Of a stretch of 64,000 nucleotides of DNA, positions 4,315-54,985 are shown piece by piece (position 1 is the stretch's first letter; each line of letters starts with the position of its first letter). The notes beneath the pieces are model-generated. The model saw only the letters and a program-made list of their open reading frames with translations, was not told where the DNA came from and did not search any database. Source of the DNA: a virus; the IMG/VR virus record IMGVR_UViG_3300009008_000005, positions 32,001-96,000 of that record. One strand, 5' to 3'. A program made the position numbers and the translations under genes.

Positions 4315-6567
4315 CTAGCCTCCGTACAAGGCATCTAGCTCATTGTTCATCTTACTATCCGACTTGGGAATCCTACTAGTAGCAGGTCCCTTGCGGTTAT
4401 TTGCTGGGGCTGGAATGGCTCCGGGCGGATTACCACCACCTACTACAAACGAGCCTGACCTGGGAGCTGCCCCTGTGTCACGCTTGTTGTTCCACTCCAT
4501 GGCCTCGTTCTCTTCCCGGAAAGCTTCGGCTCTGAGCTTTCGCATAGCCCGGTCCCTATCAGACACTCCGGGACCTTCCGGAAGGGGCTTGGCATAACCT
4601 GGGAGTTCCACAGGCTCTTGTCGCTGCTGCTCCTGCCTGAGGCGGTCGGCCTCGTTCGGAGTCTGTGCCACAGGTTGTCCGGAGGAATCAGCCAAGACAG
4701 GTTTCGCTCTGTCACCACCCTGTGCTTCGTAGTAGTCCTCACCCGGGGCACGGCCTCCGGTACCTTCACCTATAAGCTTTGACCCCACTACCAGACCTCC
4801 CGCTGTGAGGAGACCAGCACCTATTAGTTTGGGCGCAGCGCCTAAGGCTCTGCTACCAGCAGCCGCCATGCGTCCACCAAGGCCAACAGCCTGTCCGCCT
4901 GGGGAAGGTACGGGCGGTGGGACATTACTTGGAGGTACATTCGGCGGGGGCTTGGCTGCACCACGGCCTATGTTAGCTGCAGGGTTCGCATTCGGTGAAG
5001 CTGTATCATCTACAAAGGTGGCAGTCCTAGGCTGCTTCTTGACTGGGGTTGTAGGTCTTGGGGGAGGATTCGCCGGGTCATACCGAGGAATCCTTGAACT
5101 CTGAGACGGTGGCGTAGCGCTAGGTGGGGGTGGGTTGTCAAAGATCGACTTGGGTGTTCCTTGTACAGGAGTCTTCGACGCAGGTACAGCTCCTGCAGGC
5201 TCCTTCTTAGTCGTCAAGCGCTGCCACATATTCGGTTCTTCCCTACCGTAGCGCTCCTTGTTGCTCCGCCTAATAGCCTCTTCAGAGGGGCCCTTAGACT
5301 TTGCGGGTTTAGTCTTCAGTTGCTTCTTCGTCAGATCTCTACTGACTGCTTCAACTTCTGCCCTTGCCTCTGCGGATAGAGGGACCTTACCTGAGCGATC
5401 CAGAGCTTTCCGCTCCGCTACTGCTTTGGCGATACCGTCAGCGTCAGGCTTTACTTTCGTCCCTGGACCAGGCGTTGGTTTTACGTGACTCGTACCCGAA
5501 CCTAAGTCCGCAGTGCTACTAGCGGCCGATGTTCCCTTGGGACTCTTCGTTGGGTTCGGGGCAGGTGCCCTAGGAACGCCACCTCCGCCACCTCCAGCTC
5601 CTACCCTTACGGGGACTGGGGGGCGCTTCATGGTCTCAGCACCACGTAAGGCATCGTCCCAAAGACCCTTAGCCTTACCCGCTACGTTCTTGACCGCCTG
5701 TACAGGGCTCGAAGATATACCGGATCTCGCAAGCCTAGATACGCCGGGGGCCACCACCATGGATGCGTCCAGAGCTTGCCCAGCTGTTGCACCCAGAGTG
5801 GCGGGCCTCTCCCTGAACTTCTTTACTTGATCGTCAGTTACATTAGGGTCGAGCGCCTGTGCAATCTCCGGAGCGGCGAAGAATGATCTGTCCTGGCCCT
5901 TGAAACCCGGATGGAATGTCCGCTCTTGTCCTGTACGCTTCAGCTTCGCTTTGTACGCCGTGTCCTGCTTAGTGTCGCCGAACTCCTTCTCTCGCATCGT
6001 ATTGACATAACCACCCGGGCCGTCCACGTTCATCCCAGTGGCCCGGATAGGAGCCGTTACAAAATCACGCACAAACTTCTTAGATCGCTTCGCACCCCGG
6101 TCCATAACACGATCGTGGGCTCCAGCTAAGCCGCCACCCTGCGAATGAGCGCTCTCATTGAAGCGCTTCGCACCGGCCCGATTACGTGCCCGCACACGCT
6201 TGAACTTGTCTGCAGCTCCCTGATATGCGCCCTGGACCTTAGACCCGAGATTTTTACCGAGAGCGACCTGCAATCCTGTGGCCTTGGGAGGGGGCGCTTT
6301 ATAGTCCAGCTTTGACTTGAATCCTTTTTGGTGCCAGGGCTGATTCAAAGGAGGGTTCACAGCCTTTGTTGAGTCCTTCGGCCCATAATCAGCTGTGACC
6401 GGGTCCTTGAACGTAGCTGTAGATGACCTTCCGCTGGGTGAGGGCAGTGTCCGCTGGAGCTTTGGATCGACCTTGGTCTTAGGTTTGGGTGCAGTCGTCT
6501 GCCCAAAACCTTTTAGCTGCGGGTCGAAGGCCAGCTTACGTAGGTGCTCCTCTAATCTCTGTCTCAT
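4315..6567 (-). CDS. Basic Pro/Gly/Ala/Lys-rich low-complexity protein with one hydrophobic Gly-rich segment (putative internal virion protein)
   Basis: 750-aa ORF; N-terminal KLAF motif; LIGAGLLTAGGLVVG segment. Confidence 0.6.
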   Translation of the reverse strand: MRQRLEEHLRKLAFDPQLKGFGQTTAPKPKTKVDPKLQRTLPSPSGRSSTATFKDPVTADYGPKDSTKAVNPPLNQPWHQKGFKSKLDYKAPPPKATGLQVALGKNLGSKVQGAYQGAADKFKRVRARNRAGAKRFNESAHSQGGGLAGAHDRVMDRGAKRSKKFVRDFVTAPIRATGMNVDGPGGYVNTMREKEFGDTKQDTAYKAKLKRTGQERTFHPGFKGQDRSFFAAPEIAQALDPNVTDDQVKKFRERPATLGATAGQALDASMVVAPGVSRLARSGISSSPVQAVKNVAGKAKGLWDDALRGAETMKRPPVPVRVGAGGGGGGVPRAPAPNPTKSPKGTSAASSTADLGSGTSHVKPTPGPGTKVKPDADGIAKAVAERKALDRSGKVPLSAEARAEVEAVSRDLTKKQLKTKPAKSKGPSEEAIRRSNKERYGREEPNMWQRLTTKKEPAGAVPASKTPVQGTPKSIFDNPPPPSATPPSQSSRIPRYDPANPPPRPTTPVKKQPRTATFVDDTASPNANPAANIGRGAAKPPPNVPPSNVPPPVPSPGGQAVGLGGRMAAAGSRALGAAPKLIGAGLLTAGGLVVGSKLIGEGTGGRAPGEDYYEAQGGDRAKPVLADSSGQPVAQTPNEADRLRQEQQRQEPVELPGYAKPLPEGPGVSDRDRAMRKLRAEAFREENEAMEWNNKRDTGAAPRSGSFVVGGGNPPGAIPAPANNRKGPATSRIPKSDSKMNNELDALYGG

Positions 6568-7913
6568 GGCCGCCCCATCCTTGGAGGCTTCGGGACCCGG
6601 GTCTTCATGGGCTTAGGCATACCTCGCATCGTATTCCTACGCTGTCCACCTGCTCTGTGCTGACCGATTTGTGTCATTCGACCGGGCTTCGCCAACCCTC
6701 CACGACCTGCGCCTCCGTAAGGGTTGACGTTGCCCTTAGTGTAGCCCGAGAAGTGCAACTTCTTAGGTCCACGCTGGCTTATAGGTAGCGCTGACCTACG
6801 CTTAGCCGCTGCTCCGGCTGCAGCCGCTGACTGCTGGTAGGAAGGTACCTTAGGTTTACTCCTAGGCGACGGGACACGAGGCTTCTTATCATAAACATCT
6901 GCAGAAGCTACAGGCTTACGTGTATCCGTATCTCTGTGCGGACCGAAGGGCTTGTTCGTCTTAGGATCAACCTGCTGGAACGTGGTCTTTGACGTGGTAT
7001 ATTTACCCTTCCACTTAGAACCTTTGGGAGCTTCACCGGGCAGACGCCCAGGATCTGGCTTCGCAGGCAGGCCTCTACCTGTCCTGAACTTTTCAAGCCT
7101 TTTCTGACGAGCACCTGGATATAACTTATCTTCGGCCGTCCCTGCTCGGCCCAGATTCACCCTCATACCTTTGAGGGGGTCCATACCAGTCTTGCCAGTG
7201 ACCGCCAGCCCCTTGTCCATAGTGGCCAAGAATTTCTGGTCCATGGGATCCTTGCTACGCTTCATGAGAGCTGCGCCATGCGCCCTGAAGTCCGCCATGA
7301 ACTTAGCTGGATCTTCTCCCTTATCGATAGCTCCTTGGACCTGAGTCAGTAGGGTGTCTCTAGTTAGTGCCTTATCCGGATTCTTCGCATCCAGCTGCCA
7401 CTGCGCACCTACGCCCGTACCTGTCTCAAAACCCGGCTTCTGGTAGAACCTGGAGTTAGGATCCTTTCTCGCCGCCTCCAGAGGGGAAGGACTGGTCCCA
7501 GAACCACGGAGTACATGTTGCGGTGCTTCTGCTTGTGGTGCGGGTGCAGCAGGCTGCTGGGCATTACCGTCTGGCCACTGGTCATTACCTTCTGGCCAAT
7601 TCTCAAAGAACCTCGGAATCTTCGCTGGTTCCGTCGGAGCAGGAGCCGCTGCTGGGGTTACTTCGGGAGAGGGAGGTCCTCCTTGCCAGCCACCCGTAGG
7701 TCCTGTAGGTGGAGGAGCCGGTACCTGGGTCATGCCTGTAGTCGTGCCACTCAGGTTCTCCTGGGCCTGTGCCCCAGCAGGTTGACCTGCACCCGGGAAC
7801 CAATTCCTAACCCTCGCCATTCCTGCCCGGGCTCTTTCAACAGCAGCTTGTGCGTCCTGGAGCGCTGGAGGCTGGAACGAGGCTGTGAAGCCCTGGGCTA
7901 TCTTCTTTCTCAT
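6564..7913 (-). CDS. Basic low-complexity protein (putative internal virion protein)
   Basis: 449-aa ORF coupled to both neighbours; N-terminal KIAQ motif. Confidence 0.6.
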   Translation of the reverse strand: MRKKIAQGFTASFQPPALQDAQAAVERARAGMARVRNWFPGAGQPAGAQAQENLSGTTTGMTQVPAPPPTGPTGGWQGGPPSPEVTPAAAPAPTEPAKIPRFFENWPEGNDQWPDGNAQQPAAPAPQAEAPQHVLRGSGTSPSPLEAARKDPNSRFYQKPGFETGTGVGAQWQLDAKNPDKALTRDTLLTQVQGAIDKGEDPAKFMADFRAHGAALMKRSKDPMDQKFLATMDKGLAVTGKTGMDPLKGMRVNLGRAGTAEDKLYPGARQKRLEKFRTGRGLPAKPDPGRLPGEAPKGSKWKGKYTTSKTTFQQVDPKTNKPFGPHRDTDTRKPVASADVYDKKPRVPSPRSKPKVPSYQQSAAAAGAAAKRRSALPISQRGPKKLHFSGYTKGNVNPYGGAGRGGLAKPGRMTQIGQHRAGGQRRNTMRGMPKPMKTRVPKPPRMGRP

Positions 7914-9452: not shown

Positions 9453-9653
9453 TCAATCCTCTTCCAGGAAGACGGACAGGTCGGAGTCGATGTGATTCTC
9501 CATGTTAGGGAGCAGCGTATTCATCGAACCTACTGCGCCCTTGAGCTTCAACTCCTTCAAGAAATCCCGCTCTCTGGTGGCCTTCTCTTCCTCTACATCC
9601 AACCACTCGTCCAGGATGTCTCGTAGCTCCTCAAGCTTTTCCTTAGTTGCCAC
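9453..9653 (-). CDS. Hypothetical protein (66 aa)
   Basis: ORF fills the gap between coupled genes. Confidence 0.65.
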   Translation of the reverse strand: MATKEKLEELRDILDEWLDVEEEKATRERDFLKELKLKGAVGSMNTLLPNMENHIDSDLSVFLEED

Positions 9654-10491
9654 TAGCTATACCTGCCCGCTTCAAATGCTCGCCTAGCTGTGAGGCTACG
9701 TTCTTCCTGATACGGTAGATCTTATGGGTAGTCATGCCCGTCTTCTTTGAGATCACCTTCACGTCCGTAGTCCTGGGTCTCCCTAGGCCTGTTAGGTAAC
9801 GGTATACCTCCTGCTCGTCCTCCTTCAGCTCGTACAGAAACAGCTTCATGATCTCCATCTCCTTAGGAGGAGAGACCGCTGTAGGATCAGATTCAAACTG
9901 AGATGTGGTGAGGTCCTTCCGAAGCTCTGTGCGAAGGAGTGTTACCTGCTTCACTGGCCACTTCAAACCATGAGCCAGTTCCCCATCCGTGGGTAGCCGA
10001 CCCAGCTTATCTGTGAGGCGCTGCCTCTTCATCTCGTAGGTGCGGATCTTGTCGATCCTCTCCTCCGGGATGCGGGCTGCATTCTGGTAGGTCTTGATGT
10101 ACCTTCCTGTCTTCCGCATATACCACGTAGCGAAGGTGGACAGACTCGCACCCTTTGCTGGATCGTAACGCTTCAAGCCCTCGATCAGATGCTTGGTGAA
10201 CTCTGTCCGTATCGCCTCTGGAGGAAGCTGTACGTTCCCGATGTACTCGTTGGCTGCTCTGTTGATAAGTGGTTGGAAGGACTCGACCAGGGGTCGCATG
10301 TCTTCAGGGCGCTCTCCGCTAGTCTTCCACTTGAGCCAGAGAGCCATCTCCCTCTGGCGGCTCTTCTGTAGCGGGGCCTTTTCGGGCTTCTTCTCCTCTA
10401 CATCTTCGGTACGAGTATGGCCCTTGACCAGGACCTTCTTCCCGTCCTCCGTACGATAGTACGGCTTTACTGGAACCTTACGAGTAGCCAT
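9643..10491 (-). CDS. Sigma70-family RNA polymerase sigma factor with an extra N-terminal motif
   Basis: Region 2 YDPAKGASLSTFATWYMR; region 3 LGRLPTDGELAHGL; C-terminal HTH-like region 4. Confidence 0.85.
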   Translation of the reverse strand: MATRKVPVKPYYRTEDGKKVLVKGHTRTEDVEEKKPEKAPLQKSRQREMALWLKWKTSGERPEDMRPLVESFQPLINRAANEYIGNVQLPPEAIRTEFTKHLIEGLKRYDPAKGASLSTFATWYMRKTGRYIKTYQNAARIPEERIDKIRTYEMKRQRLTDKLGRLPTDGELAHGLKWPVKQVTLLRTELRKDLTTSQFESDPTAVSPPKEMEIMKLFLYELKEDEQEVYRYLTGLGRPRTTDVKVISKKTGMTTHKIYRIRKNVASQLGEHLKRAGIASGN

Positions 10492-10493
10492 AT

Positions 10494-10961
10494 CTAGGCC
10501 CCCGGAATCTTCAGCTTGCGAAGACCTGAGTATATGCCATAGCGGAAGCCTGCTGTCTTCTCCATGTTCTCGAAGATCCCGTGCTTGACGGGGTTCTTGA
10601 ACCCCATCTTGTTTCCGAGCTTCCTGCTGCCTTTATTCGTGTGGACGTACTGCCACTTCCAGCGCTTCACTTCAGGGTGCTTCTTCATAAGGAAGGAAAC
10701 GGCTTTCTCACCAAGACCCTGCCTACGGTATTTCGGCGAAATACCTACGCCAACGAAAGCGGATTTGCTGGAATAAACCTTCTGCTTCTTGTAAGGCCTC
10801 GTAAGCTCTACGAAGCCCATCCACTTCCCTCCATCATATAACCCGTAACCCGTCCGGGCACCTTTAGGTGGGGCTGGGATCGTACCATGACCTGGGAAGT
10901 TTCCTGACTTTACCTTTAGGGCGGAAGCTTTCTTCCTGTCATAGGGGCCTATGCGAATCAC
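10494..10961 (-). CDS. GNAT-family acetyltransferase (start reassigned to GTG 10961)
   Basis: Motif A ISPKYRRQGLG and NKGSRKLGNKMGF; GGAGGA RBS before GTG 10961; the longer ORF would overlap a plus-strand gene. Confidence 0.8.
   Translation of the reverse strand: MIRIGPYDRKKASALKVKSGNFPGHGTIPAPPKGARTGYGLYDGGKWMGFVELTRPYKKQKVYSSKSAFVGVGISPKYRRQGLGEKAVSFLMKKHPEVKRWKWQYVHTNKGSRKLGNKMGFKNPVKHGIFENMEKTAGFRYGIYSGLRKLKIPGA
10729..10743. repeat. Dispersed palindrome TATTTCGGCGAAATA (inside GNAT CDS)
   Basis: Read directly. Confidence 0.85.
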
Positions 10962-12444: not shown

Positions 12445-14913
12445 CTAGATGGCATCCCCAAGGGCTTTGTCCACACCTGTAGTCTTGGCCATAGAACGTA
12501 TGGCACGGACTCTCTTGAATCTCTTTATCCGATCCATGAGGGTCTTCTTGGAGAGGAGGGGCTCCTTCCGTTTCTTTAGAGCTGAGTGCACGAAGGGGAT
12601 AGCCGCTGCGCCTGCGGCTGCGGGGAGCGTGTACTTACGGAGCTTCCGTAGGCCCTTGAGCTTCTTGGCTGCACCTCCAGCCGAAGCGAAGTCGACGACT
12701 TTACCCTTGGACTTTGACTTCAAGGATCTCTTGGCCAGGGCCTCTGCACCGAACTGTGCTCCTGCACCGGCCCCACCGATAGCTGCTCCCGTAGCGAGAT
12801 TTTTCTTGAGTGTTTTCTTCTGCTCGGGAGAGGCCTTACGGACCTTCTTCAGGACCTTCTTACCGCCCTTCACTCCCAGGTAACCACCGTACGAACCTGC
12901 CAGGGCCCCGCCCATGGCTCCAAGGGTGGCTCCGCCCACGGTAGGAATCTTTCCTTTCTTGGCCCTGTTCTCCATTACCTTCAAGGCGGTCAATGCACCT
13001 GCAAGGGAACCACCAGTGGCTCCGAACTGCTCACCAAGAGTCGGGTCTGGGGGGCTGGCGGCTGTCTTCTCTAGTGGGAGAAGGCGTGTGGGTCGCCTAC
13101 GAGACGGGTCAAAGTTGGAGAGGGCCTTATTCGACCAACTTTTGAAAGATGACCGGGGGACCAAAATTTCGTTTACCAAACCATCCCCACCACCGAGAAT
13201 CTTGTTCCTTGGAACATTGAATGAGAGAGTACCGCCCCCGGGACGTTGGCCGTATGGAGCGCTGTGGTGGAAAGCATACCCTTTCTTTGGGTTCGCCTCA
13301 AAGGCGTATAGACCGCCCTGGGCAGCACGAGTTTGTCCAGGAATTACATGCTGGGAAGTAAACCTGGTGCCCGGTGTAGATGTCCCAGCTAAACGCAGGT
13401 CTGAGGCTTCGCCACCAGAGACAACACGGACGGGCTCCTTAGAACGTGAGTACGAGCGAGCACTCGGACTGTAAGGACTACCAACCCCGGTGCCCTCTAA
13501 CTCCGGTACCTTCCCTGTTCTTTTCCACGTCTTGTAGGATTCAAGTCTTTGCTTCAACGGTACATAGGGATCGGATTTTGCGTTGACTCTTCTGGTGCGC
13601 CGAACCAGTTTTTTCAGCTTAGGTAAATCCCTCTCCGCTATTACCTTCTTAGCTTGGTGTTGCGTCATAGGGGACGGGGCAGACTTACGTAGCGTGGAGA
13701 CCAAACTGTCAAATAAGTTGAACGCAGCCCTGGGGGCCTTTGCTAGGGAAGCAATCTTGACCTTCTTCCCACGCTTCCGTCCATCATGGACCCAGCGCCA
13801 GAACTGGCCAATGTTCATCACAGAGTGGTCTTGGTAAAATCCTCGGCTGTTGTACTGCTTTCGGTAGGCTTTGAGCGCAGTCTGGACATCATTGAAGCCC
13901 AGCATGACCTTGTCTTCGTCATACTTTTTGGTCTTGGGGTCTTGCTGATGTACAACCACCACAAGGGGCGAATCTGCATTCTTCCCGACGTAGACGTCGA
14001 GCTTGTCCCCATCCTTGCCTTCCGTACCCCGGATCTCACCATAGTGGTGATGCATGAAGGTCTTCCAAGGTTTTCCATCAGGATCCTTTCCGGAGCGTGA
14101 GGAACCACGCTTGTTCTCAACGTCGATCTTCAGTCCTTGGAAATCTACGTAGCCCTGGAAGGGCCACTTCTTCCTCTTGGCTTTTGGCGGAGCAAGAGGC
14201 ACACGTGAGTTACCGGTGGGGACCTTCACAGCAGAGGACTCCTTCTTGAGGAGATTAGCCTTCAGGTCGCTCACTCCCTTCCCTACGAGTGCGGACCCCC
14301 CAGCAAGACCAGCTATGCCTGCACCGAACCTACCCGGCTTCCTCTTGATGTACTTCGGTAGGCCCTTGGCTAGTTCCTTCACGAGACCAAGGCGCTTACG
14401 ATGCTTCGACTTATGGATGTACTTAGGGTCGATAGTTTCCGTCGTAGTAGCTGCGATGTTCTTCCGGACCGACTTGGGAATATCATTAGGAGGTCTCATG
14501 TCCTGATCAAGCTTGAACTTTTCCCACCGGGAGTCCGGTATCGTAGCCGTTATGACTCTCTTATTTGCGGTGGGGTCAAAAGCCTTGAGCAAAGGGAGTT
14601 TGTCCGTAGATTTCTCCTTTTTGAGCTTTTCCGTCAGTCCAGCGAACATCCTAGCAAGGGTTTTGCTCTTGGTTACGTGGACTTTCCCCTTGCTCCTATC
14701 CTTGAAGTACTCGTCTATTGTGGCCGCTCCTGTACCGCCCTTGGCAGGGCTTAGACCCTCAGACAGGATAGAAGGAATGTTCTTACCATCACCCGTACCA
14801 TGATACACCTTGTGCGCCCCTACCGTACGTCGTAAGGACGACGGTAGGAGAGCCGCTCCTGTACCTAAGGCAACAGCGCTGCCTGGAAGGCCTAAACGAT
14901 CCCTCTCGGCCAT
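12445..14913 (-). CDS. Multidomain protein: ART-fold domain + inorganic-pyrophosphatase-like (InPase) domain + second ART-like domain + glycine zippers
   Basis: YHGT..SILSEGL..KVHVT..ARMFA..IDPKYI; GLKIDVEN..HYGEIRGTEGKDGDKLDVYVG..YDEDKVMLGF; GGLYAF..LSFNVP..NEILVP; GxxxG-rich C-terminus. Confidence 0.75.
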   Translation of the reverse strand: MAERDRLGLPGSAVALGTGAALLPSSLRRTVGAHKVYHGTGDGKNIPSILSEGLSPAKGGTGAATIDEYFKDRSKGKVHVTKSKTLARMFAGLTEKLKKEKSTDKLPLLKAFDPTANKRVITATIPDSRWEKFKLDQDMRPPNDIPKSVRKNIAATTTETIDPKYIHKSKHRKRLGLVKELAKGLPKYIKRKPGRFGAGIAGLAGGSALVGKGVSDLKANLLKKESSAVKVPTGNSRVPLAPPKAKRKKWPFQGYVDFQGLKIDVENKRGSSRSGKDPDGKPWKTFMHHHYGEIRGTEGKDGDKLDVYVGKNADSPLVVVVHQQDPKTKKYDEDKVMLGFNDVQTALKAYRKQYNSRGFYQDHSVMNIGQFWRWVHDGRKRGKKVKIASLAKAPRAAFNLFDSLVSTLRKSAPSPMTQHQAKKVIAERDLPKLKKLVRRTRRVNAKSDPYVPLKQRLESYKTWKRTGKVPELEGTGVGSPYSPSARSYSRSKEPVRVVSGGEASDLRLAGTSTPGTRFTSQHVIPGQTRAAQGGLYAFEANPKKGYAFHHSAPYGQRPGGGTLSFNVPRNKILGGGDGLVNEILVPRSSFKSWSNKALSNFDPSRRRPTRLLPLEKTAASPPDPTLGEQFGATGGSLAGALTALKVMENRAKKGKIPTVGGATLGAMGGALAGSYGGYLGVKGGKKVLKKVRKASPEQKKTLKKNLATGAAIGGAGAGAQFGAEALAKRSLKSKSKGKVVDFASAGGAAKKLKGLRKLRKYTLPAAAGAAAIPFVHSALKKRKEPLLSKKTLMDRIKRFKRVRAIRSMAKTTGVDKALGDAI

Positions 14914-14918
14914 GGGGC

Positions 14919-15350
14919 CTAATCCTTCTTGAAACGGTCGATGTACTTCTTCTTCGCTTCAGGCGTGACCTTGCTACGGAATGGGCCCATCTGGATTCCC
15001 TTCTCCGCCAGGAGGTTACGATCTGTGAGGTACTGGCCTACGCCAGCGCCTCCGGACATCCCGAGAAGGCCACCTAGGATTGCACCAACAGCTCCACCCT
15101 TCCCGGAGCCCTTCCCGATTACTGAACCGAGACCGGCACCACCGAGGGCACCTAGGCCCATACCCCCAAAGGTACCCTTGAGTCGTCGCAGGTAGACCTC
15201 TGGGGAAACTACCACCTTCCCGAGACCCTTATCACCAGCACGCATGGCTCTGTTACTAGACAGGAACGAATCCTTTAGTCCTAGCTGCTCCATGTCCTTG
15301 CGGTTCTTCAACTCTTTGTAGGCTTTCGATGCGAGTTTCAGCTTGCTCAT
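14919..15350 (-). CDS. Glycine-zipper membrane-active protein
   Basis: GGMGLGALGGAGLG..GAVGAILGGLLG; GGAGG RBS before ATG 15350; N-terminal KLAS. Confidence 0.7.
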   Translation of the reverse strand: MSKLKLASKAYKELKNRKDMEQLGLKDSFLSSNRAMRAGDKGLGKVVVSPEVYLRRLKGTFGGMGLGALGGAGLGSVIGKGSGKGGAVGAILGGLLGMSGGAGVGQYLTDRNLLAEKGIQMGPFRSKVTPEAKKKYIDRFKKD

Positions 15351-15360: not shown

Positions 15361-16782
15361 TCACTTGATGTTCTTCTCCACATGCCAATCCGAGAAGCTC
15401 GCCTTCGACAAAGCCCCGGACTCGTACTGCTTCTCTGCAGTCACTCGGGCCACTAGACCCACATACCGCTTCTTATTCTGCCATAGATCTTCACGCAATG
15501 CATCATTCAGCCCTGTGCCTACCTTCCCCACAATAGGTCCATGACGGGTCAGGGAATAAGAGAATCCTCCTGCTGCCTTGCCTGCATATTTACCACCACC
15601 TGGGAAGATCTCCCGTACATAGACATCGTGCTCATACCTGAGCTTCGACTTCACAGGACCCTTATCTGTCCAGAGGACAACACCTTCTCTCGTAAGGGGG
15701 TGCTTCCCTGAACCGATGGAATCTAATAGCTTCGACTTGTCCTTCGGTGAGGTAGCTACAGGGGCAACACCTAGGACAGGGTATTTCGCTGAAATAGTAT
15801 GTAGAAGCTGCAGCCTTTCCTTATACGGTAACTTCGTAACATCGTGGCCATTGATCTTCACTGCGTCGAAAAGGAAGATCTTCGTCTTGGCCTTAGCCTC
15901 TGCTTGGATGTGGAGGCTGTTGATGACGGTAGCGTTCAACATACCTCCCACCTTCTCAGGAGGCAGAGGGACTCCGTCTGGACCTATGGCCAGAACCTCC
16001 CCACGGAGGATAGTTGGACCCTTCCCACCCTTGGCCTTCGTAGCGTATAAGTCCTTGATCTTGTGGGTATATTCTAAAAGGTCACCGGTCTTGGACTCCC
16101 TGGTGGAGAAGGCCCGTATCCGCTTCCCAGGTCGCATTAGGACAAGGGCATGCGCCCCATCGAGTTTGGCTCCGACGATGACGTCATCCCTGTTGACGAT
16201 CTCGTCACGCTGAGGTGTCTTCCACCCGATCTCCTTGTACTTCGGCCTGCCCCTAGGGGTTTCCTTCTTGGGGGCCGTCATGTTCACAAGGATCCAATTC
16301 TTCTTCCCTATATGGAGCAGTGCGAAGTCTTCCGTGCTCTTCCCACGGGTCACGGAGAACACGACCTTCTTCTCATCGGACGAATGTATGATGGCGTGGG
16401 AGTACTGCTTCAGGAATACCTTGCCTTGGCCGTACCCTGTCTCAAGCCTCCCCTCGAAGGGCATGTAGTCGTTCTTGTGCGTGAACGTCTGCATGACCAA
16501 TGTGCTCTTCCCTGGGGGAGGGAGAGTGAAGTCCTTCCCCTTCAGGGAGTGCCAGCTATGCGCCTTACCTGAAGGGTCACCCAAACGAAGGTCGAAGTGC
16601 TTCCCGGACTTCTTGGCATGGTGCTCCTGGAGCCCGAAAAGCCACACTTCTCCCCTCGCTGTCGGGATGGGGTGTGTGGTCTTGCTGTAGGGCCCTTCCT
16701 TTAGGTCACGGGTATGCGGCCGGACGTAGACGGTCTTGCCTTTGAGCTTCCGGCTATGCCCATCTACTTGTGTGCGGCCCAT
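15361..16782 (-). CDS. ATP-dependent DNA ligase with N-terminal LigD-type 3'-phosphoesterase domain
   Basis: PE motifs QEHHA..HFDLRL..SW..H..Y..FEG..GYGQG; ligase motifs KLDG, RGEV, FLFDAV, EGVV; OB domain GKVGTG. Confidence 0.88.
   Translation of the reverse strand: MGRTQVDGHSRKLKGKTVYVRPHTRDLKEGPYSKTTHPIPTARGEVWLFGLQEHHAKKSGKHFDLRLGDPSGKAHSWHSLKGKDFTLPPPGKSTLVMQTFTHKNDYMPFEGRLETGYGQGKVFLKQYSHAIIHSSDEKKVVFSVTRGKSTEDFALLHIGKKNWILVNMTAPKKETPRGRPKYKEIGWKTPQRDEIVNRDDVIVGAKLDGAHALVLMRPGKRIRAFSTRESKTGDLLEYTHKIKDLYATKAKGGKGPTILRGEVLAIGPDGVPLPPEKVGGMLNATVINSLHIQAEAKAKTKIFLFDAVKINGHDVTKLPYKERLQLLHTISAKYPVLGVAPVATSPKDKSKLLDSIGSGKHPLTREGVVLWTDKGPVKSKLRYEHDVYVREIFPGGGKYAGKAAGGFSYSLTRHGPIVGKVGTGLNDALREDLWQNKKRYVGLVARVTAEKQYESGALSKASFSDWHVEKNIK
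15782..15796. repeat. Dispersed palindrome TATTTCGCTGAAATA (inside ligase CDS)
   Basis: Read directly. Confidence 0.85.
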
Positions 16783-48063: not shown

Positions 48064-48378
48064 TTACCCTCTGCATCCCCCAGTAGCCAGGAGTGTGTCA
48101 GCCTCTACGGGCTCCCAATCTTCCCACGCTGATGACCCATCGCCCTGCCCACGCAGGTATCTTCCATCAGGTACACCTGTACTCTTGATCGCCGTGCCCT
48201 CTGGAGTAGCGGGACCGGCATCTTCAAGGGCCTGTATGCGAGCATCGGCCCCGTCCATCTCACCCTCAAGATTCACGAAGGCGTCATCGGTATCCGCACG
48301 TAAGTCTGAGCCTACACGATCCGCTCTGTTCAGGTGTGGGTACTTCGGTCCGTCTACTAGACTTCTACTTCTGGCCAT
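48064..48378 (-). CDS. N-terminal fragment of the same tail protein (frameshifted)
   Basis: Contains STGVPDGRYLRGQGDGSSAWED repeat; a second copy is restored across the frameshifts. Confidence 0.6.
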   Translation of the reverse strand: MARSRSLVDGPKYPHLNRADRVGSDLRADTDDAFVNLEGEMDGADARIQALEDAGPATPEGTAIKSTGVPDGRYLRGQGDGSSAWEDWEPVEADTLLATGGCRG

Positions 48379-48709
48379 TATTCCTCCTACCCCTTGAGAT
48401 TCGTAGGGCTAGAGCTAGCGCAGCCGCTGATGGTAGTCCTACGGCTGTCCCTGTGGCTATGGAAGCGTTGCGTATGGGGATCTTAGGGAATTTCCCTAAG
48501 GGTCGCTTAGGTACCTTCCCAAAGAGCTTGCGTAATACCCAGCCTTTCAGTCCCTTCTTACGATTTAGCTCGGAGAACGTATCTCCGACGCCGGAGTTGA
48601 TTCCGTCGAAGATGGCTTTAGTCTTGAGGTAGTCCTTTATACCTACCCCTGCACCAATGCCTGCCCCGCCTACGATCCCACCTGCAAGGTCTCTATAACC
48701 GTCTTTCAT
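48365..48709 (-). CDS. Small basic protein with Gly-rich hydrophobic segments
   Basis: LAGGIVGGAGIGAGVG; IATGTAVGLPSAAALALAL. Confidence 0.65.
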   Translation of the reverse strand: MKDGYRDLAGGIVGGAGIGAGVGIKDYLKTKAIFDGINSGVGDTFSELNRKKGLKGWVLRKLFGKVPKRPLGKFPKIPIRNASIATGTAVGLPSAAALALALRISRGRRNNGQK

Positions 48710-49271
48710 ATGCTGGTACCTGGTCCATTTTAGTGACGACCTTCTTCTGCATCTTTGGACGTATCCGAAGTGGGTAGCCAGAAGCTGCTAGCGGGTCGAG
48801 GCCTAGATATTTCTTACCCTTCGCAAGAGCTGCCATACTCGCAAGTCCAGTACCTGGAATACCACCACCCAGCACCGCACCTGGAAGAGAACCTACGTAC
48901 GCATCGGGATGCTGCACTGCGATAGGGATAACATTCTTAGAGAACCCCTTCGCAGCCTTGCGGGCTACCCACGTCCATAGGTTCTCGCCCTGCTGGGTGA
49001 AGTGCTCCTTCGGTATCTTCCGTAGAGCTTTCTCGCTGGCCTCATGACCCAAGCTATGGGCTAAAACCCTACCCGCCAACTCCCTGTCATCAAGTTGCTT
49101 ACTAGTTCTATGCATAGACTTCGGGATAAAAAGCCGCATGTTCTCGGTCCCCTTGAAGGGTACCTGTACGGCCTTTCGTATCAGCTTGTCAGCTCTAAGA
49201 AGAAAGGCTTGCTTCTCTTTCTCCTGATTGTATGTCTGTAAGGCGAAGCCCAGCTTTGTGACCTCTGGCAT
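48693..49271 (-). CDS. Zincin-like protein with degenerate HExxH (HSLGH)
   Basis: VLAHSLGHE; KLGF and KQAF motifs; Gly-rich hydrophobic segment. Confidence 0.55.
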   Translation of the reverse strand: MPEVTKLGFALQTYNQEKEKQAFLLRADKLIRKAVQVPFKGTENMRLFIPKSMHRTSKQLDDRELAGRVLAHSLGHEASEKALRKIPKEHFTQQGENLWTWVARKAAKGFSKNVIPIAVQHPDAYVGSLPGAVLGGGIPGTGLASMAALAKGKKYLGLDPLAASGYPLRIRPKMQKKVVTKMDQVPAYERRL

Positions 49272-49776: not shown

Positions 49777-50349
49777 TTATACCTCGGTCCCGTAGGCTAT
49801 TAGCTTCAGGTTGGGCCTGTAGAGGGCCCAACCGATCAGCTTGTCCTCGGTCAGATGCACTCGCTCTAACACATCCAATATTGTAGCAGACCTGTCCACG
49901 AAGGGGCCATGTTTGCCCCAATTTCCAGTGTGGAAGTACCCTCCGTCTCTCTCAAAGAGACAGAGGTTATGACCACCAGTACGTTTCTTATCCGACATCC
50001 AGGACACACTAATGACCTTGGGGTGGTACTCAGGGCGGATCGAAGCTGCGCACCATACAGCAAACTCATCGCAGTCTAGAGCGCCCTTAGGTTGTGGCCT
50101 CCCCTTAGAGACCTCACTGATGCAGTACGCAACCCAATGCGGGGAGCCGACCGCATCCCATAGTTCCCTCTTGCCGTCCTTCGTCCAGGTCAGCTTCTTA
50201 GCCATAGCCGTGGCCGTACCAGGTTTCAGGTCTGCAGACACGGTGTAATTCTTGTACTTACGATGATACAGCCACCTGTAGAATCTGGACCACAGAAAGT
50301 ACAGGCGGGTGAACATCAGGAAAGAGTAGCCTTGTTTCCAGAACCACAT
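49777..50349 (-). CDS. Transglutaminase-like cysteine protease
   Basis: GALDCDEFA..GGHNLCLF..TGNWG (Cys-His core); GGAGGT RBS. Confidence 0.65.
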   Translation of the reverse strand: MWFWKQGYSFLMFTRLYFLWSRFYRWLYHRKYKNYTVSADLKPGTATAMAKKLTWTKDGKRELWDAVGSPHWVAYCISEVSKGRPQPKGALDCDEFAVWCAASIRPEYHPKVISVSWMSDKKRTGGHNLCLFERDGGYFHTGNWGKHGPFVDRSATILDVLERVHLTEDKLIGWALYRPNLKLIAYGTEV

Positions 50350-50405
50350 GCGCCACCTCCTACCCAAGAGTATGCCTTACGGCATGCCTCAGAGACAACC
50401 CGAGG

Positions 50406-50420
50406 TATTTCGGCGAAATA
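50406..50420. repeat. Dispersed palindrome TATTTCGGCGAAATA abutting a promoter
   Basis: Read directly. Confidence 0.85.
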
Positions 50421-50461
50421 CGGAATAAGAACTGTGGAGACAACCCACAAAGGAGCTTCCG

Positions 50462-50941
50462 ATGCCACCTGATGAATGGATAATGCGACCGACTGTAGCC
50501 TACCATCCTGCGGAGGAGCCGAGAGTCCGTGAGCGACGAACCTTCGCCGTACAGGCGAAGGAGGTGCTCGACGAATACTTCAAGACCCTCATCACGCCAC
50601 CTTCCCTTGACGACCTGAGCAGGCTGGAGAAGCTGCTGGAGGAGAGGCTCGGACTCCTCTGTAGCATCCAACAATCCAACATCTCCCTTGCTGACAACAG
50701 GATCTCCATGGCTGTGGTGCGCCGGGAGCGGGTCAGTATCTCCGACGAGCATATAACCCTCCGCATGGGTCGCACTCTCAATGAGGGGGAGGTCTCACTG
50801 GTCGTGAACACCAACGCAGGGGTGCGAGGGGCCTCTACCGAGGTCGGCTGGTGCCATAACTGCGACTCCCTGCCCTACAACTGTGGTTGCCGTGGTCAGC
50901 GCTTCTCCCCGAGGGAGACCGGTGTCGCAGCCACTGGGTAG
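50462..50941 (+). CDS. Hypothetical protein with C-terminal WCxxC..CxC Zn finger
   Basis: Palindrome + promoter + AGGAG RBS; GWCHNCDSLPYNCGC. Confidence 0.7.
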   Translation: MPPDEWIMRPTVAYHPAEEPRVRERRTFAVQAKEVLDEYFKTLITPPSLDDLSRLEKLLEERLGLLCSIQQSNISLADNRISMAVVRRERVSISDEHITLRMGRTLNEGEVSLVVNTNAGVRGASTEVGWCHNCDSLPYNCGCRGQRFSPRETGVAATG

Positions 50942-51368
50942 CTTCATTGACTCCAAGGTCCGGAACTTCTTCCGGGCCGTGGACGCTATAGGTCCTACGG
51001 AGTTAGAAGCGCTGCGGAGAGAGCTGCTGGAAGCGTACGGATTGAACGCATTCGTGAGCTTCCTACCTGGAGGCTCGTTCGGGGTCAAGATCACCGGCCG
51101 AACGGGATACTCCGCAAGGCAGCTATCTCTACGTCTAGAGGAGGACGTAGAGATATACAGTGTAAGTCGGCTGGCGCATAACTGGTGTTCTACCTGCGAC
51201 CTTCCTAGGGCGAGGTGCAGCCACAGCAGGGCCTACGGGTGGGGAACCCCATATGGAGCGGCTAACACGATACAGGACACCATAAGGTACTACACGAGCA
51301 CCGCTTCCAATTCGACATTCAACCTGGATCCGATGTGGGGTACTACGAGCGCTACAACATATCGGTGA
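50922..51368 (+). CDS. Hypothetical protein with WCxxC..CxH Zn finger
   Basis: NWCSTCDLPRARCSH; followed by a terminator. Confidence 0.6.
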   Translation: MSQPLGSFIDSKVRNFFRAVDAIGPTELEALRRELLEAYGLNAFVSFLPGGSFGVKITGRTGYSARQLSLRLEEDVEIYSVSRLAHNWCSTCDLPRARCSHSRAYGWGTPYGAANTIQDTIRYYTSTASNSTFNLDPMWGTTSATTYR

Positions 51369-51369
51369 G

Positions 51370-51392
51370 AAAGGGGGCTTCGGCCCCTTTTT
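51370..51392. terminator. Bidirectional terminator
   Basis: AAAGGGGGC-TTCG-GCCCCTTTTT. Confidence 0.8.
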
Positions 51393-51394
51393 AC

Positions 51395-51658
51395 CTAGGG
51401 CTCGGAGACTTCTTTGAGAGCTTCATACCTCGCTCGGAGGTCTTTTATGATCTCCTGTAGGCCTTGCTCATACTCCATGCGGTCAGACATCCAGCCGTCT
51501 GTGACCTCATACCAGCCCTTGTCCTCGTCCTCCTTCACCTCGGCCTTGGTGACGAAAACAGGCTTGTCCCGGTACGGATCCTTCTTGCAGTACGGCTTGC
51601 AGATTCCGTAGCAACCAGAAAGGGAGAGGAGTGCCACCCATAGTAATAGATTTCGCAA
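51395..51658 (-). CDS. Small lipoprotein (o-spanin-like)
   Basis: Signal peptide with LSGC lipobox. Confidence 0.6.
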   Translation of the reverse strand: MRNLLLWVALLSLSGCYGICKPYCKKDPYRDKPVFVTKAEVKEDEDKGWYEVTDGWMSDRMEYEQGLQEIIKDLRARYEALKEVSEP

Positions 51659-51661
51659 GAG

Positions 51662-52348
51662 TCACCTCAGTAGATTGCGAAGAAGCCCTGTTAGTACCTT
51701 CCTACCGTCACGACCTTTTCGGATCCTACGAGCGAAATCCTCCCCGATGTCCATACTAGAGGTGTCCCAAGTAGGAATAGAGGACGGAGCATTATCCCGG
51801 AGTATCTTCATAGCTTGATCGCCAAGACCCCGCTGCTGGGCCGCACGCAACAGCCTCACGTGCTTCTTCGTCAGGTGGGAAGAAACAAGAGGAGGTGCGT
51901 GCTGAAAAGGTTTAGCACCGCCCTCTACTTTTGTTATGAACTTCGCTGGGATTCTCTTCCGCACCACTTTCTCGTCGTGGGTGCCCATTCCACCAAGACG
52001 TAAGGAGTCTTCCAAGGAGTCTGGGATATCAATCTTGATAACCCCACCCGAAGGTTTCCAAGGATTGGGGGCTAGGAAATGCTTCTCCTGTGGTGTCATT
52101 CCCAATGAACCCAAGAACTTGAGCTGTTTTATTCGTGCTTTACTGGGGACAGCATGTCGGTTGTTGCCCTCAAGAATATTGGATGCACCAACCCGGGCGT
52201 AACGCTTAGCGAGATCTGGGTCACCGGTTACGTAAGTGCCCTCTGGGAGCCCTTCCCGTAGAACATCTGCAATGAAAGGCTCACCCATACCACGGTAGTA
52301 TGTCTTAGCGTACTTATAGAGGGCCAAGCCTTCCTGTAGATGCAGCAT
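51662..52348 (-). CDS. ADP-ribosyltransferase-fold protein
   Basis: YYRG..VLREGL..GTYVT..LAKRYA..IKIDIP..DEKVV..IPAKFI. Confidence 0.75.
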   Translation of the reverse strand: MLHLQEGLALYKYAKTYYRGMGEPFIADVLREGLPEGTYVTGDPDLAKRYARVGASNILEGNNRHAVPSKARIKQLKFLGSLGMTPQEKHFLAPNPWKPSGGVIKIDIPDSLEDSLRLGGMGTHDEKVVRKRIPAKFITKVEGGAKPFQHAPPLVSSHLTKKHVRLLRAAQQRGLGDQAMKILRDNAPSSIPTWDTSSMDIGEDFARRIRKGRDGRKVLTGLLRNLLR

Positions 52349-52352
52349 CCCC

Positions 52353-52712
52353 TTACCTCGACCAAATAGAAGCCCTATTCGGCTGCTCGAACCTTGGCTC
52401 CCCGTAGCTGTTCAAGGCTTCTTCAGACAGGTATTTTCTGAGAGATACGTTCCTCTTGTATGCGTCCTTGTTAGCGTACACATTCCCTACGCCACCCGGA
52501 GTACCCTTCGTCTTCAAGAGTGGCCGGTAGTCAGGATCCTGCCCCTGTCTGTAACCACTGCTCCCAGACGTGTAGACATTCCACCTGGGGACTCGCTTGA
52601 AGCTGTATTTCTTGCTCTTGTCGCTCCTAGCACCAGGATCAGCTGCTAACTTGAGCCTACGGGCTAGCTTTAGGAACTCTTTCGGGGACTTTTTTCTCCT
52701 GGGTTCGTGCAT
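52353..52712 (-). CDS. Basic hypothetical protein
   Basis: GGAGGT RBS; tandem KLAR/KLAA motifs. Confidence 0.65.
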   Translation of the reverse strand: MHEPRRKKSPKEFLKLARRLKLAADPGARSDKSKKYSFKRVPRWNVYTSGSSGYRQGQDPDYRPLLKTKGTPGGVGNVYANKDAYKRNVSLRKYLSEEALNSYGEPRFEQPNRASIWSR

Positions 52713-52731
52713 GGCTGCACCTCCTCAGGAG

Positions 52732-52977
52732 TCATTTTGGCATAGAGGGACGCTTCTTGGGAAGAGGGACATTCCGGCCATGCTTGGCGAACGCCGCAGC
52801 AATGGCGTCCGCATCCCCCTTATTGAGAGCCGTGGCAAGATCTGAAAGAGCTCCGTTCTGGGCCTCTTCGAAAGTCTCAGGCTGGTTCTTCTCTGCGGCC
52901 TTATCAGAGATCCAGGTGATGAGGGCTGGTAGGAAGACGGCGAGAATGGAACCAATGATCTGCAGTATAGCTTCCAT
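52732..52977 (-). CDS. Small N-terminal-TM membrane protein (lysis-related?)
   Basis: IIGSILAVFLPALITWI. Confidence 0.6.
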   Translation of the reverse strand: MEAILQIIGSILAVFLPALITWISDKAAEKNQPETFEEAQNGALSDLATALNKGDADAIAAAFAKHGRNVPLPKKRPSMPK

Positions 52978-52986
52978 TAGCTTCTC

Positions 52987-53268
52987 CTAAAGACTAAGCC
53001 CTAGAGTTAGTTCTCGGGGCTTAGGTCTACCTGGGCCCTTGATCCTTCGGCCACCTGGCATGCCTTCAATGGGCTCTTCCCACACACCAGCTCGCCAGTT
53101 AGGCTCATACTTACGTTTGGGTTTACGACTGTTTATGATCTTGTTCAGGTCCCCGCTGTCCGTCATCCGCCTAAAGGTAGTAAGGGTGTTTTTATCTTCT
53201 ACGCCAGCAGCCTGGAGGTAGCCCTTCTCCTTCGCCCGGAAGTCCTGCTGGCGCTTCCCCTTCTTCAC
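52987..53268 (-). CDS. Small basic hypothetical protein
   Basis: 93-aa ORF coupled to the upstream gene. Confidence 0.55.
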   Translation of the reverse strand: MKKGKRQQDFRAKEKGYLQAAGVEDKNTLTTFRRMTDSGDLNKIINSRKPKRKYEPNWRAGVWEEPIEGMPGGRRIKGPGRPKPRELTLGLSL

Positions 53269-54164
53269 ATCACTAAGGAGGGTTGTGCTTCCTTCAACCT
53301 AAAGGCTAGCTTCATGAAGTGCCCAGGTGAGGACTTCTTCACCTTCAGCTGCTTCTTCTTGTCAAAGTGTCTCTTCGCAAACATCCCAGTGCCAATACTA
53401 CCGACCAATGAGGGTAAGAGACTTGAAGCATACGTCCCGAAGGCCGCTGCCAATGGACGATACTTCCGGATCTTCTTGAACTTCGCCGGACCTACCGCCT
53501 TGCGCAGCTTCCGCAGACCTCTGAGAGAAGCTCTACCCTCTTCCCATGCTACCGTTGCAGCTGGGATAGATGTGGCTGCGGTGATACCGCCTGCCGTAAG
53601 AGCCTTCTGCTTGTCTGTCATCTTGTCCGTAGCACCGAGACCTATGAGTGCGGCACCTTGAATGGCCCCCATAGGGAGCCTCCCTAGTGCACCTGTGTTG
53701 AACTTCTGGTAGATCTTTGAGGGTAGCGCACGTCCTCCCAAGTGCCCAAGCTCATGGGAGTAAAGAGCCGGAGAAGGTCCAGTAACGACGGCACCTTTTT
53801 GCTTCGGACCCAGTAGAGACTTTACCTTCTTAGCGAAAGTAGCGATATCAGGGTCGGGATCCTTGCTGAAGTGGTCCACAGCCTCTCGGCTGTAAGAGAT
53901 GCCGCTGAGGGGTACCCCGGTGCTCTTCTCGAACTCCTTCGGGGTGAAGAACCTTACCCTGCCTTTAGGATCCATCTTTTGACGAATCTTTGTGAAGTCG
54001 GCCTCAGGGACAAGGTGATTCCCCATAGCAGCAAGGGACAGACCTCCGCCTGCCATCTGCGCCAATTCCCCTGCACCCAAGAAACCCGCTAGACCAAGAC
54101 CTACCTGCCTAGCGCCAGCCTCATCATCGGAGATGAGTTTTTTCTTTTTCCTGCCCCAGGCCAT
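53265..54164 (-). CDS. Zincin metallopeptidase with hydrophobic Gly-rich segments
   Basis: HELGH plus downstream WEEGRAS third-ligand motif. Confidence 0.75.
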   Translation of the reverse strand: MAWGRKKKKLISDDEAGARQVGLGLAGFLGAGELAQMAGGGLSLAAMGNHLVPEADFTKIRQKMDPKGRVRFFTPKEFEKSTGVPLSGISYSREAVDHFSKDPDPDIATFAKKVKSLLGPKQKGAVVTGPSPALYSHELGHLGGRALPSKIYQKFNTGALGRLPMGAIQGAALIGLGATDKMTDKQKALTAGGITAATSIPAATVAWEEGRASLRGLRKLRKAVGPAKFKKIRKYRPLAAAFGTYASSLLPSLVGSIGTGMFAKRHFDKKKQLKVKKSSPGHFMKLAFRLKEAQPSLVM

Positions 54165-54985
54165 TAGTCCCTGAACCTACCTACGTGAGAGTCGAAGTAG
54201 CCCTTCAGGTCGTTCTCACGAGCCTTCATGTTCATCGTTGGCTTGAGCCGTCCGGAGGAGATCTCCTTCTTTAGGAACTTCGCCCTGTCCTCATTCGAGG
54301 ACAGATTGTAGAGCTTGCGAGCCAGAGGATCCTTCAAACCCTTCCTGATAGAATCTCCGGCCTTGTAGGGAGAGCCTCCCTGGGCCTGGTGGGCGATGTA
54401 GTTCAAGCCTGACATACGCCCGACACGCTGCTTCCGAAGTGCAGACACCTGATCACGGATATGTGGCGCAATGAGCTTTCGGCCTTCCCGACGACCTTCC
54501 CTACGCTTCTTCTTCCCCAGGTGTGATCCTGCAAAACCACCTGCAGCTCCACCAAGGATTGAGAGCGCACCAGCAGCACCTCCGCCTATCCGCTTCTTCA
54601 GGAGCTGTGGTAGGGCCCAGCCCGCTACACCTCCACCCATAAGACCTAGCGCACCCATCCTACCGCCACGGATGTACTTCTTGTGGGCGTCCTTGTACTC
54701 CTGGGAAGACGTAGTCTTCTTGGACTGCTCACGCAGAGCCTCTAGGTGGTCAGCAGGTGACATCTTAGCAGAGTTCTTTTCGATGTATTCCTTACGCTTC
54801 TTCCGCCAAGCCTTCCCCTTCGCATCCTTCCGATAGGCTGCGAAAAGCGGAGCTTTACTGTTCAGGGCGTTATTCTTTTTCGCAAAAGCTGCTGCAGCTC
54901 GCACCTTCGGGTCCTTGGACTTTGAAGGCATAAGCTGGTCCTTTGCCTTCTCCAAAGCTCCCCTGGTCTCGTGCTTCAAACTCAT
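54164..54985 (-). CDS. Basic glycine-zipper protein
   Basis: GALGLMGGGVAG..GAAGALSILGGAAGGFAG. Confidence 0.7.
   Translation of the reverse strand: MSLKHETRGALEKAKDQLMPSKSKDPKVRAAAAFAKKNNALNSKAPLFAAYRKDAKGKAWRKKRKEYIEKNSAKMSPADHLEALREQSKKTTSSQEYKDAHKKYIRGGRMGALGLMGGGVAGWALPQLLKKRIGGGAAGALSILGGAAGGFAGSHLGKKKRREGRREGRKLIAPHIRDQVSALRKQRVGRMSGLNYIAHQAQGGSPYKAGDSIRKGLKDPLARKLYNLSSNEDRAKFLKKEISSGRLKPTMNMKARENDLKGYFDSHVGRFRD

Follow-up and report, generated by a model that had tools for sequence, protein, structure and literature searches.

The stretch of DNA analyzed here, referred to as the window, comprises 64,000 nucleotides of IMG/VR virus record IMGVR_UViG_3300009008_000005 and corresponds to positions 32001-96000 of a phage genome of 180,825 bp that is present as a single viral contig. 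Its late strand encodes many basic proteins, in which a first-pass annotation had noticed a short peptide motif, K-x-[AS], near a terminus or between domains, and had proposed that this motif is a maturation-cleavage or packaging tag releasing effectors of a polyvalent-protein system split over many genes. Gene calling on the whole genome gave 228 open reading frames (ORFs) and identified the phage as a myovirus (tail sheath, portal, large terminase and major head protein weakly matched to PHROGs). The proteome falls into two classes, acidic structural proteins and a net-positive, Lys-rich late-strand set, and Lys usage is strongly bimodal genome-wide (1-2% in tail, fibre and other structural proteins, 8-20% in the candidate cargo). 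Thirty-four late-strand proteins combine a net positive charge with 8-20% Lys, and 17 of them are encoded in the window, in the blocks 4315-7913, 9643-16782 and 48365-54985 and in one further gene at 30930-31250 (positions are those of the window unless given as genome positions). These basic proteins form a class and not a homologous family, as self-BLAST revealed almost no paralogy. Related loci were gathered by a search with an alignment of the capsid protein, after a single capsid sequence as query had failed, and the metagenome searches yielded 570 capsid protein homologs and 390 related viral contigs; the closest relative, G001, shares 67% capsid identity.

Motif Statistics

Every peptide quoted in the first-pass annotation was found in the gene to which it had been assigned. 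The literal pattern K-x-[AS] is nevertheless depleted, with 129 occurrences in 39 basic proteins vs 180 +/- 11 expected from within-protein shuffles, and within the first 35 residues it occurs in 7 of the 17 basic late proteins of the window vs 7.2 expected. The annotation had itself tied its proposal to enrichment over background, and for the literal form enrichment is ruled out by this depletion. A stricter core, K-[LIVT]-A, with a preferred Glu or hydrophobic residue before it and Ser, Ala or Gly after it, is real. When all tetrapeptides of the proteome were scanned without bias against per-protein composition, EKVA, EKIA and EKLA ranked first, second and fourth among the over-represented ones (25 seen, 3.6 expected). 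Nine of the 13 cited examples match this core (RKLAF, KKIAQ, EKTAG, VKIAS, EKTAA, LKLAS, LKLAR, LKLAA, and MKLAF), whereas KKESS, TKLGF, EKQAF, and YKYAK fall outside it.

The strict core is concentrated at the N-termini of the basic proteins. It is present in the first 35 residues of 13 of the 34 basic late-strand proteins vs 2.6 +/- 1.6 expected, a number that none of 400 resamplings reached, and the enrichment persisted after two paralog pairs were taken out. The controls were flat, both for the basic plus-strand proteins (1 of 8 vs 0.7) and for all other proteins (10 of 177 vs 6.1). Outside the window, 9 of 17 basic late proteins carry an N-terminal core vs 1.4 expected, and these nine cluster between terminase and portal; among the proteins of this cluster are an SNF2 helicase and, within the head module, two basic proteins with Gly zippers.

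The Motif in the Head Module and a Predicted Prohead Protease

The pattern [EQD]-K-[LIVMT]-[AG] occurs at 54 sites of the proteome, and about half of them lie in a dozen head-module genes outside the window (genome 149672-158785, approximately 3,000 residues). In this module the strict core was seen 33 times vs 5.6 expected (z score 12), while the T4 code [LI]-x-E was at expectation (33 vs 31.8) and the phiKZ code [SAG]-x-E was mildly elevated (80 vs 63, z score 2.6). A position-specific scoring matrix built from the head modules of the relatives only found 23 sites vs 0.6 expected in the head module of the phage itself and 5 vs 1.1 in the basic late proteins; strict thresholds of this matrix miss most tags of the basic proteins because Val, Leu, Arg or Lys often replaces Glu before the Lys. 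The acidic scaffold-like proteins hold 2 to 8 motif copies each, spaced by 7-43 residues, and three of them are paralogs with a common repeated block that holds the motif. One scaffold-like protein (genome 152609-153529) combines an acidic half with eight sites and a basic Gly-zipper tail, and the Gly-rich segment in this tail links segments of this kind with the interior of the head. The capsid protein has E-K-L-A at residues 26-29, within its N-terminal arm, with K27 and A29 invariant across 24 homologs of down to 47% identity.

Across 18 related loci, the motif was found in the same places, i.e., in the scaffold-like proteins, the capsid protein and the protease described below. KVA, KTA, KIA, and KLA were the four top over-represented tripeptides in these loci, and the resulting logo reads [L/phi]-[E>D]-K-[V,L,T,I]-A-[S>A,E]-[A]. 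Two tagged basic proteins with Gly zippers, encoded inside the head module between protease and terminase, are conserved in relatives, and comparison with G001 showed that the SNF2 protein and two basic head-module proteins keep the N-terminal position of the tag.

The head module also encodes a candidate for the enzyme that would recognize the motif. The gene at genome 154277-156913 (122277-124913 in window numbering, i.e., outside the window) lies between the terminase and capsid genes and encodes a protein of 878 amino acids (aa), which is interrupted by a Hint/LAGLIDADG intein right after the catalytic V-S-M-G. Only a weak PHROG match to "head maturation protease" was obtained for this protein; the Peptidase_S78 profile had no match in the genome, a sequence search of the intein-free protease against Pfam and PDB gave no match, and the protease was identified by fold search only. 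An AlphaFold2 model of the protease domain of an intein-free homolog (24 sequences, predicted local distance difference test (pLDDT) 70.6) had T4 gp21 as its best fold match (5jbl_B: Z 9.0, root-mean-square deviation 3.0, 131 residues), followed by herpesvirus proteases with Z 5-7.3. Intein-free homologs align over a domain of approximately 240 residues, in which a His and the Ser within V-S-M-G are retained. Among 14 homologs, the sequence F-E-K-T/V-A-S with an invariant or nearly invariant Lys and Ala is found upstream of this domain, and K-I/L-A is found downstream of it in most, in addition to a further E-K-T/V-A-S. A motif-flanked protease of this fold was present in every relative examined. 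The protein is thus predicted to be a prohead serine protease of the T4 gp21/herpesvirus assemblin fold, and it is a likelier processing enzyme than the putative zincin at 53265, to which the first-pass annotation had pointed. With the motif saturating the head module, present in the capsid N-terminal arm and on both protease flanks, and conserved clade-wide, the central suggestion of the annotation, a tag for maturation cleavage or packaging, gains support.

Inserts in the protease were also found in relatives. At least seven relatives share the position of the insert, and two carry an insert of approximately 370 residues further upstream (L045, L049, L050, L054, L055, L061, L065, L008, and L080).

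Candidate Cargo Proteins of the Window

The proteins of the window that bear on the proposal are listed in Table 1.

Table 1. Proteins of the window with candidate tags, domains and Gly-rich segments (DNA positions in the window).
Position	Strand	Protein	Length (aa)	Motifs and landmarks
4315..6567	-	Basic, low-complexity	750	RKLAF aa 10-14 (DNA 6526-6540), candidate N-terminal tag; Gly-rich hydrophobic segment aa 583-600
6564..7913	-	Basic	449	KKIAQ aa 3-7 (DNA 7893-7907), candidate N-terminal tag
9643..10491	-	Sigma-70-like factor (Sigma70 r2/r3, phrog_351)		Basic N-terminal leader with V-K-G-H-T-R (DNA 10402-10491)
10494..10961	-	GNAT acetyltransferase		EKTAG aa 134-138 (DNA 10548-10562), directly after the domain
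12445..14913	-	Multi-module basic protein	822	N-terminal module; Gly-rich aa 193-215; KKESS aa 221-225; InPase aa 253-375 (DNA 13789-14157); VKIAS aa 385-389 (DNA 13747-13761); middle module; EKTAA aa 615-619 (DNA 13057-13071); C-terminal part with two Gly-rich segments
14919..15350	-	Basic Gly-zipper protein	143	LKLAS aa 4-8 (DNA 15327-15341), candidate N-terminal tag
15361..16782	-	LigD-type phosphoesterase and ATP-dependent DNA ligase		Basic N-terminal leader with V-R-P-H-T-R (DNA 16693-16782)
48365..49271	-	Two basic proteins	114 and 192	Gly-rich segments in both; TKLGF (DNA 49245-49259); EKQAF
51662..52348	-	Basic orphan, earlier labelled ART	228	YKYAK, off-motif
52353..52712	-	Basic	119	LKLAR and LKLAA aa 14-24 (DNA 52641-52673), candidate N-terminal tag
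53265..54164	-	Basic	299	Gly-rich aa 22-44; HELGH aa 137-141 (within DNA 53733-53765); MKLAF aa 284-288 (DNA 53301-53315), near the C-terminus
54164..54985	-	Basic	273	Two Gly-rich segments; no strict tag

Placement of the motif at domain borders was supported in the 12445 and GNAT proteins. The 12445 protein contains one recognized domain, an InPase (PF18823, E 5.6e-39), together with two further modules and Gly-rich segments, while the other cargo candidates are single-module proteins. Directly after the InPase, a K-[IL]-[AS] column is invariant in 5 of 5 homologs, and beyond it their sequences are unrelated. KKESS, which the annotation had counted among the module junctions of this protein, does not match the protease motif. 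In the GNAT protein, EKTAG aligns with EKVAS (aa 133-137) of the G001 ortholog, and since the latter runs on for approximately 155 more basic residues, the site is a module junction in G001. Conservation at domain borders, which the annotation had suggested as a check, was hence seen after the InPase and after the GNAT domain, whereas most basic proteins of the window had no homologs in which to look for it.

For the 4315 protein, no Pfam or PHROG match was obtained and BLASTP found no homolog in G001. The 14919 protein matched Gly-zipper_YMGG with an E-value of 0.0025, which is below the cut-off, and its G001 homolog carries KKLAG and EKIAK close to the N-terminus. In the tags of relatives, the middle position tolerates Glu or Gln and the Ala may be replaced by Ser or Gly, and because such Gly and Gln variants exist, TKLGF and EKQAF in the two proteins at 48365-49271 may be tags. 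The 53265 protein had no Pfam match, a word-indexed homolog search returned only the query, and an AlphaFold2 model (18 sequences, pLDDT 57) was too poor for a fold search. Its family was nevertheless recovered with 19 distant homologs, in which H137, E138 and H141 show little or no variation and E209, part of a downstream EEGRAS block, is invariant, and x-K-[LIT]-[AG] is present in the N-terminal region of about 10 of 17 homologs.

The HExGH...EEGRAS family comprises about 20 distant metagenome homologs and atlas clusters of 50-219 viral members, and no Pfam family describes it. In a recurrent module, L-L-K-K-[DE]-S comes after a hydrophobic stretch that is rich in Gly and Ala and often includes A-W-G-G; this module was found at 14236-14259 (aa 219-226 of the 12445 protein) and at genome 118550-119992 and 163082-165464. 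The proteins encoded at genome 163441-163908 and 163911-165464 share a near-identical C-terminal tail of 17 residues.

Of the cargo domains named by the first-pass annotation, InPase and GNAT were confirmed, the zincin rests on its sequence motifs, and the ART assignment of the 51662 protein was left unsupported. This protein had no Pfam match even at E 5, a homolog search returned only the query, and the lead to an ART-PolyVal/MuF_C cluster was weak (atlas score 0.82, TM score 0.44). The search for an ART match also covered modules of the 12445 protein. Neither the ART-PolyVal (PF18760) nor the MPTase-PolyVal (PF18818) profile matched anywhere in the genome at E 10. Outside the window, the SNF2 helicase has polyvalent-type PHROG matches. 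The notion of a polyvalent protein split over many genes is backed in part, by InPase, GNAT and the external SNF2 protein. The Gly zippers were borne out: Gly-rich hydrophobic segments occur in 13 of the 34 basic late proteins, seven of these in the window, vs 10 of 194 other proteins, and a strict repeated G-x3-G in an uncharged stretch (PF13441-like) was found in 5 of the 34 vs 0.4 expected. That these segments aid membrane passage, as the annotation proposed, is speculation.

A second terminal tag was found in a few proteins, among them the sigma factor, whose leader lacks the K-phi-A tag. The basic N-terminal leaders of the sigma factor and the ligase both carry this second motif, V-[KR]-[AGPS]-[HY]-x-R, which is often doubled 12-15 residues apart and was seen at 4 sites vs 0.5 expected. 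These are terminal sites in the sigma factor, in the DNA ligase and in a second GNAT protein (C-terminus, genome 116506-117024), and the tag is also found in G001 orthologs. In six more distant relatives, the sigma orthologs have a K-x-A-[SAN] leader at the same place, suggesting that the two tags may be interchangeable.

A group of KQAF-type tetrapeptides in the relative G003 was rejected as tags, since they were traced to a tandem repeat of one protein. This fibre-like protein of 1273 aa (G003, L102, genome 63148-66969) contains more than 13 tandem 20-residue repeats with D-K-Q-A-F-R and is not related to the tag.

Proposed Role of the Motif

We consider it rather probable that the tag is the cutting and head-loading code of the gp21-fold prohead protease, and that it serves to load fast-evolving basic cargo. 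The recognition code would read [E or hydrophobic]-K-[V/L/T/I; E/Q tolerated]-A followed by S/A/G/E, and, if the assemblins are a guide, cleavage would take place directly behind the Ala. The acidic scaffold-like core proteins, with their many copies, would be chopped up and cleared from the head, whereas the major capsid protein would be cut at the single copy in its N-terminal arm and the protease at the copies on both flanks of its domain. On otherwise unrelated proteins, the code would act as an N-terminal leader (Lys at residue 4-30) or as a linker between modules, such that the tagged proteins are recruited to the prohead core, trimmed and retained in the head. Here and in the nearest relative, the putative tagged set consists mostly of proteins that are rich in Lys and evolve fast, and many of these have hydrophobic segments rich in Gly; the small number of homologs of the basic window proteins is consistent with fast-evolving cargo. 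Some of the predicted cargo includes enzymes of the sort that polyvalent effectors bring into the host (InPase, GNAT, the HExxH protein and the SNF2 helicase), and the cargo would probably be delivered along with the DNA. A bolder version, which we regard as possible and no more than tentative, is that in this sub-clade the polyvalent effector has been dismantled into a large set of separate modules of fast turnover, each addressed to the capsid by one of two tags and injected as a complete early-infection kit. K-phi-A would be recognized and cut by a gp21-fold protease that has taken on a herpes-like "cut after Ala" specificity, and a hairpin-like V-[KR]-A-H-x-R tag would serve the sigma factor, the ligase and a GNAT protein, with Gly-zipper tails that form or widen a conduit through the membrane.

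A first alternative is that the motif acts purely in docking or targeting, as a helix that binds the scaffold, the capsid interior or the portal and stays uncut, the copies in the scaffold then being duplicated helical repeats. The block shared by the three scaffold-like paralogs would fit such repeats, and targeting and processing are separable in the capsid targeting sequence (CTS) of T4 (PMC9026906). However, the positions on both protease flanks and in the capsid N-terminal arm are the classic positions of self-cleavage and maturation in T4 and SPN3US, the motif marks borders past which homologs fully diverge, and the spacing of 7-43 residues in an acidic core protein fits degradation. We therefore regard docking alone as an improbable explanation.

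Chance is in our view equally improbable as an explanation of the whole. It would hold that the examples in the window arise in Lys/Ala-rich low-complexity proteins, that only the head-module motif is real and that the basic proteins are, for example, late membrane or DNA-binding proteins. Besides the depletion of the literal motif and the four of 13 examples that lie off the core, the total number of core matches in the basic proteins is not enriched (30 vs 25 expected), so that single internal or C-terminal examples are not separable from chance by counts, and EKTAA of the 12445 protein and MKLAF of the 53265 protein could be chance matches. Within the window, the N-terminal core is found in 4 of the 17 basic late proteins (genes 4315, 6564, 14919, and 52353) vs 1.2 expected, which is marginal (p 0.03), and is lacking in the other 13. 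The marginal count in the window and the unenriched total count against a cutting and loading code, as do three further points. The K-V-A near the N-terminus of the RNA polymerase (RNAP) was rejected as a tag since it is not kept in G003, so incidental matches do occur. For most basic proteins of the window, no homolog that would reveal conservation was found, not even in G001. In addition, when a tail protein and the capsid protein were searched by tblastn against 50,697 deposited phage records, there was no match, i.e., no cultured relative was found. In contrast, the genome-wide N-terminal count (13 vs 2.6) with its flat controls, the retention of the tag position in conserved orthologs, the two tagged basic Gly-zipper proteins conserved within the head module, and the N-terminal tags in homologs of the 53265 family elsewhere all speak against chance, which is plausible for individual sites of the window.

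Far less likely is that processing is performed by the HExxH protein encoded at 53265 or by the cargo itself. The HExGH and the downstream Glu-containing block are conserved in the family, and autoproteolysis by MPTase domains was proposed by Iyer et al. (PMC5512222). On the other hand, no relation to MPTase-PolyVal was detectable, BLASTP found no homolog of the 53265 protein in G001 or G003, which both keep the motif, and the motif-flanked gp21-fold protease is found in every relative examined. Finally, the idea that the invariant Lys is an acceptor for a conjugation cassette of the phage with a ubiquitin-like protein (Ubl), E1, E2 and JAB, to which a ThiF/E1 match in G000 and the position of the Lys beside an acidic and a hydrophobic residue could point, was rejected, as the complete relatives G002, G003, and G004 have no ThiF/E1 match, yet their protease, scaffold and capsid protein retain the motif.

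Comparison with Known Systems

The statement in the first-pass annotation that no such system had been formally described was too strong, since the T4 CTS with gp21 and the propeptides of phiKZ and SPN3US with gp175 and gp245 are of the same kind (PMC9026906; PMC10052503). The best reading of the code in the present phage is a system of the T4-CTS or phiKZ-propeptide kind with a new, herpes-like code. The substrates of gp21 in T4 are the scaffold, the capsid propeptide, the termini of gp21 itself, and leaders of 7-65 residues on internal proteins and Alt; the CTS comprises 10 residues and is found on IPI-III, and Alt is cut at both ends (PMC9026906). The likeness extends to the protease fold (Z 9.0 to gp21), to the use of one short motif across scaffold, capsid propeptide, protease termini and the leaders of unrelated basic proteins that are injected or predicted to be so, and to a similar leader length, and in T4 a C-terminus, that of Alt, is processed as well. 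In contrast to T4, where the code is (L/I)-x-E, which is unenriched here, the predicted code of the present phage is K-[VLTI]-A-[S/A/G], and the predicted cargo is a far larger set that is rich in Lys and Gly, has Gly-zipper segments and includes some sites that serve as linkers between modules.

In SPN3US, gp245 accounts for 14 cleavages, spread over nine head proteins, and removes its own C-terminal part (PMC10052503). Phages phiKZ, 201phi2-1 and SPN3US resemble what is predicted for the present phage in that many head-internal proteins have N-terminal propeptides with multiple cleavage sites of a single motif (PMC10052503; PMC5694885), in that the protease (gp175 or gp245) removes its own C-terminal part, and in having a phage-encoded multisubunit RNAP. 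They differ in a motif that ends in Glu, A/S/G-x-E, and in belonging to a separate clade, and packaging of the RNAP finds no support from a conserved tag here.

The herpesvirus assemblins have a related fold, and as scaffold-linked proteases they are freed at short R- and M-sites whose final Ala precedes a Ser or Thr, such as YLQA-T and VQA-S (PMC4498786). The resemblance in specificity, x-A-[S/A], would be one of inferred cut sites, and the herpes sites have no invariant Lys at P3. To our knowledge, the assemblins are not used for tagging cargo.

Polyvalent proteins contain 2-15 domains per polypeptide, and the polyvalent InPase has been predicted to be packaged in the virion (PMC5512222). 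The polyvalent-type InPase is shared, and the GNAT, SNF2 and HExxH modules, the fast-evolving module content and the several modules of the 12445 protein are reminiscent of such proteins. In the present phage, however, the modules are mostly separate small genes, ART-PolyVal and MPTase-PolyVal are unmatched, and release would depend on the head protease and not on a built-in peptidase.

The Dar antirestriction system of phage P1 includes the head-internal proteins DarA, DarB, DdrA, and DdrB. It resembles the system predicted here as a multi-gene, head-packaged and injected set with a large helicase-containing protein and proteolysis before packaging. We know of no short tag that is shared by the Dar proteins.

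Should the code hold, one could list from sequence alone which proteins are injected in a large, wholly uncultured clade, represented by the 570 capsid homologs and 390 contigs, and the gp21 family would include a specificity that resembles that of its herpesvirus cousins and not the "cut after Glu" of the phages studied. Dozens of orphan basic proteins would then be candidate early effectors against host defence. Foreign proteins might also be brought into capsids by means of the tag, as has been done with the T4 CTS.

Other Features of the Window

The minus strand of the window further carries an array of 37 tRNA genes at 35053-46167, which covers all 20 amino acids. A single ORF at 31840-33999, also on the minus strand, fuses a QueC-like domain with a family-2 glycosyltransferase domain, which hints at a pathway for DNA or nucleotide modification.

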